A stretch of 24,000 nt of DNA from Enterovibrio nigricans DSM 22720 (GTDB lineage Bacteria > Pseudomonadota > Gammaproteobacteria > Enterobacterales > Vibrionaceae): contig NZ_FUXU01000018.1 in assembly GCF_900167155.1 (NCBI RefSeq), forward strand, positions 35,880 to 59,879. Reading direction: 5' to 3'. The notes beneath the pieces are model-generated. The model was not told the DNA's origin, searched no databases, and saw only the letters and a program-made list of their open reading frames with translations. Of the stretch, positions 21,374-22,378 are shown piece after piece. The position numbers and the translations under genes are program-made. How positions within the stretch are numbered: position 1 is the stretch's first letter; every line of letters begins with the position of its first letter.

Positions 21374-22378
21374 ATGATTTATATCGGATACGCTTTGTAT
21401 ATTGCTGTATTTATAGTGTTTGGTTTTTTTGAACCAGCAAGGGATTTTATTGTTAGTTCATATAATTTAGCACCTGAGATCACAGCTTTAGTTATGGGCT
21501 TTTATGTTTACACGTTGTTACTAACTATATTTTTGACATTTAGAACACAATATTCGGCAAGGCCATCTTTTTATATGACACATGTGAAAATGGCATGTTC
21601 AGTTATGGTTTCGCTAGGTCTAGTTGGGACATTTTTAGGTCTCATCGATATGATAGCTGGTATTGCAGGCGCTCTTTCAAATGATGAGCCTGATTTTGCA
21701 AAGAAAATGCAAGTATTGTTGGGTGCAATTTCTGGGTCACTTTCAGCTATGTCGTTTGCATTTGTCACATCGATACTGGGTGTTGGTTTTTCTGCGTATT
21801 CTCTAGTTGCATCCACTTTTGTTGAGTCTCATTTTAAGCGAAATTCAAACACTCCAGACTTTAAAAATGATAGTGATAAAATCATTGAAAATAGAATTAG
21901 CATGCTTGAGTCATTTACCGAAAATTTAAGAATTAAAGAGTTAGAAGTACCTCTGCAAAATGGTGCGATAATGAACATATTAGAGGAAATTTATAATAAT
22001 AAAGATAAAAGTGAAATACACCTAAATACGATTATCGGCAAATTAGATTCAATAAACCAACATTCCGAATCGATAAATAATGCGACGTTATCTAACGTTG
22101 AGACTATATCTGTCCTTATCGAAAAGAATGATATCAACGGTTCTATTTTGAAAGAACAACTGGAAAAAATGAATGATATCAATGTCTCACTGGAAAGGCT
22201 ATTGAAAAAAGTAGATGCGGGTTTTGAAAGAACAGATGAAATAAAGAAATCTGTTTCATCCATAAAAGAATATCAAAATTGCACAATGAATAATCTTGTT
22301 TCTTTGCTAAATATAGCAAACGAAGCAAAAGATAGCATTGGAAAACATAAGCGTAATTTATTGTCATTTTTACAGTAA
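21374..22378 (+). CDS. MotA/TolQ/ExbB-family proton-channel protein with a C-terminal coiled-coil tail of about 180 aa (SiiB-like)
   Basis: 334 aa from the ATG at 21374 (the track starts at the GTG at 21362). It has four hydrophobic helices. The last two carry the family signature (SLGLVGTFLGLIDMIAGIAGAL and LGAISGSLSAMSFAFVTSILGVGFSAYSLV). Residues from about 160 to the end are Asn/Ile/Glu/Lys-rich with heptad-like periodicity. Confidence 0.68.
   Translation: MIYIGYALYIAVFIVFGFFEPARDFIVSSYNLAPEITALVMGFYVYTLLLTIFLTFRTQYSARPSFYMTHVKMACSVMVSLGLVGTFLGLIDMIAGIAGALSNDEPDFAKKMQVLLGAISGSLSAMSFAFVTSILGVGFSAYSLVASTFVESHFKRNSNTPDFKNDSDKIIENRISMLESFTENLRIKELEVPLQNGAIMNILEEIYNNKDKSEIHLNTIIGKLDSINQHSESINNATLSNVETISVLIEKNDINGSILKEQLEKMNDINVSLERLLKKVDAGFERTDEIKKSVSSIKEYQNCTMNNLVSLLNIANEAKDSIGKHKRNLLSFLQ

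Follow-up and report, generated by a model that had tools for sequence, protein, structure and literature searches.

A MotA-like membrane protein with a helical tail in an adhesin secretion cassette of Enterovibrio nigricans, probably a SiiB-like accessory subunit

Introduction

In Salmonella, SiiA and SiiB form a proton-conducting complex of the inner membrane, in which SiiA D13 is essential; the pair controls the retention of the adhesin SiiE at the cell surface in a manner that depends on the proton motive force (10.1101/641415; PMC6272769). Proton channels of this type help a type I secretion system (T1SS) to retain its giant adhesin or let it go. The chemoreceptor CheM is a further binding partner of SiiB. 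Its gene, STM4258 (1386 nt), was first annotated as encoding a putative methyl-accepting chemotaxis protein (MCP), and this length and annotation are consistent with a long helical C-terminal part. Here, we describe a similar arrangement in a window of 24,000 nucleotides from Enterovibrio nigricans DSM 22720 (contig NZ_FUXU01000018.1, positions 35,880 to 59,879, forward strand), which carries a gene for a MotA-like protein with a long helical tail next to the genes of a T1SS and of a giant adhesin. Coordinates are those of the whole window.

An earlier note on this DNA, made from the sequence alone, had assigned the gene product to the MotA/ExbB family and had likened it to ZorA of the Zorya anti-phage system. 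In ZorA, Thr147 contacts Asp26 of the partner protein ZorB (PMC11946911). ZorA, like the 5:2 motors ExbB/TolQ and MotA/PomA, was a second point of reference besides SiiB, with which the earlier note had also proposed a comparison.

Results

A MotA-like and MotB-like gene pair in a giant-adhesin secretion operon

The 334-aa protein and the 153-aa protein encoded immediately upstream probably form a stator-type complex that conducts ions, in which the former would be the MotA-like subunit and the equivalent of SiiB. The complex would be a dedicated accessory of a T1SS that exports and displays a giant Ca2+-binding repeat adhesin. We base the SiiB-equivalent identity on homology and gene context. 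In the window, the genes are ordered ORF189, TolC-like, HlyD-like, ORF142, MotB-like, MotA-like and giant Big_13/Ca-tandemer adhesin (Table 1). The MotA-like and MotB-like genes thus lie as a pair inside the T1SS operon, together with the adhesin, which agrees with the secretion and adhesin setting read from the sequence earlier.

The resemblance to the Salmonella pathogenicity island 4 (SPI-4) system has several components. A MotA-like inner-membrane protein stands beside a MotB-like protein with an aspartate in its N-terminal transmembrane (TM) helix (D13 in SiiA, D14 here), in an operon type that combines TolC-like, HlyD-like and ATP-binding cassette (ABC) components with a giant adhesin of immunoglobulin (Ig)-like repeats. 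The N-terminus of the adhesin has a coiled-coil segment, as described for SiiE, and SiiB, like the present protein, is much longer than a bare TM domain. There are also differences. The protein has 334 residues, as compared to about 462 in SiiB; repeats of the Big_13/Ca-tandemer type make up the adhesin; an EAL domain is present in some relatives of the protein; and the Vibrionaceae cassettes add a small outer-membrane protein (ORF189).

The open reading frame (ORF) begins at ATG 21374 and ends with a stop codon at 22376–22378 (334 codons), two bases after the stop codon of the MotB-like gene. An alternative start, GTG 21362, is available; we retained the ATG because homologues begin with MKYIGY, in agreement with it.

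A four-helix membrane domain without a MotA-type cytoplasmic loop

The two hallmark helices lie at residues 80–99 and 116–139, where the earlier note had placed them. Hydropathy gives four hydrophobic segments (residues 1–22, 34–57, 70–102 and 113–147). Four TM helices are likewise found in an AlphaFold2 (AF2) model built from a 27-sequence alignment, at 2–18/20–32, 34–56, 63–102 and 108–158, with a predicted local distance difference test score (pLDDT) of about 90 for residues 1–150. The loop 58–77 is net positive (two K/R, no D/E), and the loops 20–37 and 100–116 are net acidic, which implies an N-in, C-in topology with a cytoplasmic C-terminus. A LAPEIT motif (residues 32–37) is located in the first periplasmic loop.

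The stretch ahead of the first hallmark helix is only about 75 residues long, which rules out a cytoplasmic domain of the MotA or ExbB type. The gap between TM2 and TM3 is about 6–20 residues, depending on whether AF2 helices or hydropathy are used, and leaves no room for a loop domain; the absence of the FliG-interacting loop, claimed earlier, is thus borne out. The earlier wording, which placed this loop between TM2 and TM3, was ambiguous in its numbering: the hallmark pair corresponds to TM3/TM4 of MotA (TM2/TM3 of ExbB), which are always joined by a short periplasmic loop, and the loop missing here is the one upstream of the first hallmark helix. The protein therefore departs from ExbB and MotA in having no inter-TM cytoplasmic domain and a C-terminal helical tail instead. 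In type II ZorA, too, the hallmark helices are close to the N-terminus and there is no cytoplasmic loop domain (hallmark residues 43–105 in the ZorA2 of locus L007, see below). The whole TM domain is highly conserved, with a mean column identity of 66% and 36 invariant columns (alignment A2).

ZorA is the nearest detectable relative of the membrane hairpin

Judged by its sequence, the protein is a divergent member of the MotA/ExbB superfamily, with ZorA as its nearest detectable relative. The PADLOC ZorA2 model PDLC00638 matches residues 39–173 (E=1.1e-7), and the NCBIfam model ZorA_2 matches with E=1e-4. Alignment by hhalign of the family profile (A1) with a genuine type II ZorA, that of L007 from Microbulbifer, covers both hallmark helices with a probability of 93.4% (E=2.6e-7). 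A profile of the TM domain that is broader than A1 (A5, 26 sequences) retrieved from the PDB sequences the solved ZorA of Shewanella (8vvn_C) as top match with E=2.5e-4, followed by MotA chains (E 0.14–0.2). At the level of structure, the top 50 Foldseek matches of the AF2 model are nearly all ExbB, PomA, MotA, TolQ or ZorA chains. The best local fit is to ZorA 8vvn_D (prob 1.00, root-mean-square deviation of 3.4 Å over 97 columns). Searches of the PDB with the single sequence or with narrow profiles returned coiled-coil noise or nothing. Matches of the full-length A1 profile to designed coiled coils and to the MCP 2ch7 (E=0.004) were set aside as compositional and driven by the tail, and do not indicate chemoreceptor homology.

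An exhaustive hidden Markov model search of 1.84 billion representatives delineated a compact family followed by a gap. About 70 clusters (50% identity) match positions 1–156 in full. The next matches, beyond the gap, cover the hairpin only and are themselves ZorA-like or MotA_ExbB proteins: 33 of the 71 distant sequences have a Pfam match and 61 of them match a PADLOC ZorA1 model.

T86 and S133, the putative channel-lining residues, are conserved. T86 shows no variation in A1 and next to none in the alignments A4 and A5, and belongs to a G-x-x-G-T motif that it shares with ExbB T148 and TolQ T145. In the second helix, M126, A129, F130, T132 and G136 are invariant across A4 and A5, and S133 is aligned by motif with ExbB T181, TolQ T178 and ZorA S184. 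The two C-terminal TM helices thus carry the G-x-x-G-T and A-x-x-T/S motifs, as in ExbB/TolQ and MotA/PomA, and the adjoining gene encodes a bitopic partner with an invariant TM aspartate. T86 is the equivalent of ZorA Thr147 (type I ZorA being solved as 8vvn/8qyd), and T86 and S133 occupy the positions of the residues that in ExbB, TolQ and ZorA touch the aspartate of the partner. Since the TM domain is closest to ZorA, the cryo-EM structures of ZorAB can be used as templates for this family.

The modelled partner protein resembles SiiA at the level of the fold

The 153-aa partner is similar in size to ExbD and TolR (141/142 aa) and shares with them a single TM aspartate. Its motif APLVD14ALTGAM aligns with MotB D32, ExbD D25, TolR D23 and ZorB. 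Among 14 sequences, P11, V13, D14, L16, L25 and W152 are invariant. In an AF2 model built from a 4-sequence alignment, residues 61–153 have a pLDDT of 86–94. Foldseek comparison of the partner with 350,542 PDB chains placed four chains of 6QVP (A, E, D and B), the crystal structure of the peptidoglycan-binding domain of Salmonella SiiA, at the first four ranks (E 1.4e-3 to 6.8e-3, prob 0.96–1.00, template-modelling score (target) 0.38–0.53), a likeness at fold level. The partner thus combines the invariant D14 with a predicted periplasmic fold of the SiiA type, and the comparison with SiiB suggested earlier was apt. On the other hand, a profile search of the partner against PDB sequences returned nothing meaningful, its match to the PADLOC ZorB2 model is weak (E=0.013), and a Pfam scan gave no OmpA-family match.

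A heptad-periodic tail that carries EAL domains in sister proteins

The tail had been described as a heptad-like segment of about 180 residues. It comprises 177 (N 23, I 21, L 20, S 18, E 18 and K 17), and AF2 predicts it as all helix (166–195, 198–251, 257–283 and 288–333), with a pLDDT of 46–75 and breaks at about 196, 252–256 and 284–287. The power spectrum of its hydrophobicity peaks at a period of 3.5 residues (2.74, against 0.57 ± 0.27 for shuffled sequences, none of 1000 shuffles being as high), and the same periodicity is found at z>3 in 78 of 105 tails of the family. Low-complexity disorder, which would have spoken against the earlier description, is thereby excluded.

Across the family, the tail follows a common plan: a variable charged linker, a conserved base helix, a variable heptad-periodic middle and a conserved basic amphipathic C-terminal helix. 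The base helix has the family motif [ILV]xxR[ILV]xx[ILV]E, with R174 and E179 nearly invariant. The C-terminal motif [KR]xx[ILVM][KR]xx[ILVMF] was recognised by eye in most full-length members devoid of EAL. Tail length ranges from 94 to 299 aa in the family (median 150); even close homologues in Vibrionaceae, with near-identical TM domains, have tails of between 141 and 217 aa. This spread disfavours a ruler of fixed length, so that the length-defined sensor considered in the earlier note is unlikely.

A long C-terminal helical tail is also a feature of ZorA. However, at 177 aa the tail would reach at most about 26 nm when fully extended, as compared to about 70 nm in ZorA, the ZorA proteins seen here having 562 and 696 aa in total; and it is split from TM4 by a poorly predicted linker and into four AF2 helices. 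The likeness to ZorA noted earlier stands for the nearest detectable relatives. A continuous rigid pentameric tube, and transmission of torque along it, are speculative.

In 12 of 51 family representatives, an EAL domain (best E=7.6e-69) is located C-terminal to a helical stalk of 164–244 aa, which suggests a role of the tail as a stalk for signalling or coupling in the cytoplasm. The protein described here lacks such a domain. The EAL-bearing members belong to the same T1SS/adhesin cassette, an example being that of Vibrio ponticus (623 aa), annotated only as 'EAL domain-containing protein'; V. ponticus WP_075651836 is one of the EAL-bearing relatives. In P0043, the one EAL domain inspected, the ExxE, DDFGTG, EGIE and QG motifs are retained. 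The conserved ends of the tail and the EAL domains together point to an input of cyclic di-GMP (c-di-GMP) into adhesin display via a stator-like unit. LapD/LapG of the LapA-type T1SS adhesins offer a functional analogue, where an inner-membrane protein is associated with a giant-adhesin T1SS; by way of their EAL domains, the fused relatives could, like LapD, link c-di-GMP to adhesin retention. In contrast, the loci seen here have no LapD architecture (HAMP-GGDEF-EAL) and encode no LapG protease.

Proposed function and its alternatives

We infer a complex in which five MotA-like subunits would surround two TM helices of the partner (5:2), with a proton path formed by Asp14 of the partner and the Thr86/Ser133 pair. 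Conformational or rotary work, or proton flux itself, would control the retention or release of the adhesin at the T1SS. The 177-residue stalk would make contacts as a cytoplasmic coupling or regulatory module, the same stalk carrying EAL in sister proteins. The SiiAB-like arrangement is no oddity of Salmonella: as a conserved module it extends to Vibrionaceae, Aeromonas and several Enterobacterales. The family comprises about 70 clusters at 50% identity, and all of its members bear the annotation 'hypothetical' or just that of an EAL protein.

Several observations weigh against this assignment. The match to PF01618 (residues 68–157, profile positions 46–121 of 127) is below the Pfam gathering score (14.6 against 22.9 bits, E=0.028); weak matches to it in 18 of 27 and in 10 of 51 family members (best 1.4e-5) nevertheless speak for the superfamily. 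The earlier assignment to the MotA/ExbB family thus stands as divergent membership of the superfamily, by ZorA profiles and motifs, with the Pfam match itself borderline. In the Foldseek search with the complete model, E-values were weak, none lying below 0.077. Alignment of A1 by hhalign with single E. coli sequences gave nothing usable for TolQ (1.3%), ExbB (2.8%) or MotA (11.6%); the MotA alignment was discarded as mis-registered, with the TM3 motif of our protein paired with MotA TM4. The linker after TM4 (residues 159–165) is K/D/N-rich, contains one proline and has a pLDDT of about 52, which contrasts with ZorA. Regarding SiiAB, the relatedness rests on context and on one fold match of the partner (E about 1e-3, with a model from four sequences). 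A link between the partner and SiiA was looked for at the level of sequence and none was found; no sequence similarity to SiiB has been demonstrated either, the likeness to it being one of context and description. In the broader profile search, SiiB was not among the matches though Salmonella members of this family were, and the two proteins are accordingly distant relatives at best. SiiB reportedly has three TM helices (as described by Wille et al. in 2014), whereas four are predicted here. Finally, the cassette contains ORF142, for which SPI-4 has no equivalent.

The closeness to ZorA raises the question of whether the gene belongs to a degenerate or new type of Zorya system that merely lies beside an adhesin operon. 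In sequence as in structure, the best matches are all with ZorA, and L007, the closest out-group locus among those retrieved from genomes, encodes a genuine type II Zorya. Yet the protein scores 29 bits with the PADLOC ZorA2 model, as compared to 554–660 bits for genuine ZorA2, and 21.5 bits with the NCBIfam model, whose cut-off is 100 bits; such scores are an order of magnitude under family thresholds. None of the effectors ZorC, D, E, F or G is encoded in the window, nor do about 13 related loci contain one; in all of them, as in the window, the neighbours are T1SS and adhesin genes and the gene is invariably embedded among the former. The partner, without an OmpA-type domain, resembles SiiA rather than ZorB, and the 177-aa tail bears little comparison with that of ZorA, a protein of about 700 aa. 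On context and scores we reject membership in Zorya, which we regard as extremely improbable. A different objection is that the resemblance to MotA is superficial and that the protein is a polytopic anchor for a coiled-coil scaffold, with no ion conduction. The sub-threshold Pfam match and weak Foldseek E-values could be read in this way, and where TM helices are rich in G, A, S and L, matches can arise from composition. Against this, the matches are in register on both hallmark helices, the critical Thr and Ser are conserved in more than 70 representatives, the neighbouring gene has an invariant TM aspartate and the distant matches of the exhaustive search are MotA_ExbB or ZorA-like proteins; a mere anchor is thus very unlikely.

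A more serious alternative, though still an unlikely one, is an energiser of the ExbB/TolQ type, with output to the envelope via ORF142 as a TonB/TolA-like transducer in the MotA-like ring, the tail being a structural bundle that replaces the cytoplasmic domain of ExbB. ORF142, MotB-like and MotA-like genes co-occur in the eight loci with an aligned ORF142, in the manner of exbB-exbD-tonB, and the partner has the size of ExbD or TolR. The N-terminal TM helix of ORF142 has invariant small or polar residues (G3, F4, A7, S9 and S10, besides an invariant L23), and its periplasmic domain contains two invariant cysteines, C83 and C130, in addition to invariant Y85, G86 and N101. However, ORF142 has no detectable similarity to TonB, TolA or anything else, its periplasmic part, of only about 110 aa, lacks a Pro-rich spacer, SPI-4 functions with no gene of this type, and the EAL fusions on the tail would be left unexplained.

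Within the SiiB-like assignment, ZorA, SiiB and the present family may form one class of 5:2 units, in which the helical stalk is a signal conduit and not a torque arm, and here couples the adhesin T1SS to cytoplasmic signals; we advance this idea tentatively and hold it to be doubtful. On this supposition, EAL-fused relatives would sense or hydrolyse c-di-GMP directly at the tip of the stalk, whereas in the tail-only form the conserved basic C-terminal helix would dock a partner. Candidates are the cytoplasmic face of the ABC transporter, a chemoreceptor (by analogy with SiiB and CheM) and the adhesin itself, through its coiled-coil N-terminus, which leaves the cytoplasm last. A stator gated by a second messenger or by a partner would then set adhesin retention. 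The literature searched contains no description of MotA-like/EAL fusions in T1SS loci and no paper linking ZorA and SiiB in this context.

Cassette components, genomic setting and distribution

The features of the locus are collected in Table 1.

Table 1 Features of the locus (positions refer to the window unless another locus is named)
Feature	Position (nt)	Strand	Evidence or remark
tolB (PD40 repeats), pal (OmpA family) and ORF 1465–2205 at the position of E. coli ybgF/cpoB	2–2205	+	left window end
Fragmented IS3-family transposase ORFs	about 15586–16443	-	with a non-coding stretch at the chromosome/island junction
ORF189, small secreted protein, probably an outer-membrane beta-barrel	17363–17932	+	signal-peptide-like N-terminus MNMIRLILGMIIVLIAGPVYAAGD, C-terminal ...YLGYGISF
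TolC-like outer-membrane channel of the T1SS	17954–19276	+	PF02321 OEP E=1.3e-9; syntenic in five loci, 46–50% identity
HlyD-type periplasmic adaptor of the T1SS	19227–20495	+	TIGR01843 type_I_hlyD E=3.8e-28, PF13437 E=4e-8; syntenic
ORF142, 142 aa, inner-membrane-anchored small periplasmic protein	20489–20917	+	conserved in aligned loci
MotB/SiiA-like partner, 153 aa, one TM helix and a small periplasmic alpha/beta domain	20910–21371	+	motif, AF2, Foldseek
MotA/SiiB/ZorA-like protein, 334 aa, four TM helices and helical tail	21374–22378	+	ORF, profile, model and alignment evidence
TM domain, residues 1–156 (TM1–TM4)	21374–21841	+	conservation, AF2
TM3, residues 76–102, SLGLVGT86FLGL hallmark	21599–21679	+	T86 conservation
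First hallmark helix, SLGLVGTFLGLIDMIAGIAG	21611–21670		residues 80–99
TM4, residues 113–150, MSFAFVT132S133ILGV hallmark	21710–21823	+	invariant columns
Second hallmark helix, LGAISGSLSAMSFAFVTSILGVGF	21719–21790		residues 116–139
Cytoplasmic helical tail, residues 158–334	21845–22375	+	periodicity, AF2
Base helix IIENR174ISMLE179	21881–21913		family motif
C-terminal helix KHKRNLLSFLQ	22343–22375		family motif
Giant adhesin N-terminus, extends past the window end	22427–24000	+	PF19077 Big_13 E=2.3e-51, NF033510 Ca_tandemer E=2.3e-18
Perfect hexanucleotide repeat AAGAGC x5.7	22797–22830	+	encodes (EQ)n in the adhesin N-terminal coiled coil
EAL-bearing family members P0043, P0044, P0047, P0050, P0055, P0057–P0059, P0061, P0067, P0070, P0073			
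EAL-bearing locus L011	3229–5016 of L011		
EAL-bearing locus L012	10001–11872 of L012		

The G+C content is 41–49% at 1–17 kb, with a dip at 9–10 kb, then 36% at 17–18 kb and about 30–35% beyond 18 kb. The IS3 remnants and this fall mark the junction of an island and are consistent with horizontal acquisition of the adhesin/T1SS cassette. The left part of the window, with tolB, pal and also nadA, is ordinary chromosome. The presence of tolB and pal at the left window end makes it probable that a canonical Tol-Pal system is located just upstream, and that the MotA-like gene of the T1SS cassette encodes an extra, paralogous motor and not the housekeeping TolQ. A 95-aa protein recorded from Enterovibrio nigricans is 100% identical to part of a gene neighbouring that of the MotA-like protein. 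When the island was compared by megablast with E. coli genomes, no match was obtained.

The cassette has a third conserved accessory component in ORF142. A gene of 136–160 aa is found at this place in all eight loci aligned (A8), and L011, outside the alignment, has a 92-aa ORF at the equivalent position. No match to ORF142 was obtained in Pfam, NCBIfam, PADLOC or the PDB sequences, profile search of the PDB included. The protein could be a TonB/TolA-like partner of the MotA-like ring. ORF189, which has no Pfam or NCBIfam match, is the head of the cassette in Vibrionaceae and is syntenic in L001–L003, L005 and L006 with 51–60% identity.

The complete order ORF189-TolC-HlyD-ORF142-MotB-MotA with an adjacent Big_13 adhesin is conserved in six loci (L001–L006). 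At 40–60% identity, and with a giant adhesin, the cassette is found in loci of Grimontia hollisae, Enterovibrio, Aliivibrio and Vibrio; the gene set together with an ABC transporter occurs in V. ponticus, Aeromonas, Enterobacter hormaechei, Salmonella bongori and metagenomic contigs. Several of the ABC-containing relatives are ordered motB-motA-tolC-hlyD-orf-ABC, which recalls siiABCD..F. Wherever an adjacent adhesin gene is visible in the other loci, it is homologous to the adhesin of the window. The S. bongori locus (L015, LR134137.1, 3988546–4009307) is a second adhesin T1SS locus of this family, distinct from SPI-4. Its MotA-like gene encodes 253 aa, its MotB-like gene is seemingly truncated or uncalled and its adhesin is split into several ORFs; it looks like a decaying copy.

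L007 (9956–16439, Microbulbifer aggregans) was picked up for its ZorA hairpin alone, no genomic relative being closer to the MotA-like query. It contains a complete type II Zorya, with a ZorA2 of 562 aa, ZorB2 and ZorE, directly followed by a 975-aa SNF2/DrmD-like helicase.

In the giant adhesin of the window, an N-terminal domain is followed by a coiled-coil segment with an (EQ)n repeat and by Big_13 Ig-like repeats (ELKKLESQLAELKKLREEIERLKKEQEQEQEQEQE). A change in the copy number of the AAGAGC hexanucleotide encoding (EQ)n would keep the reading frame and alter the length of the coiled coil.

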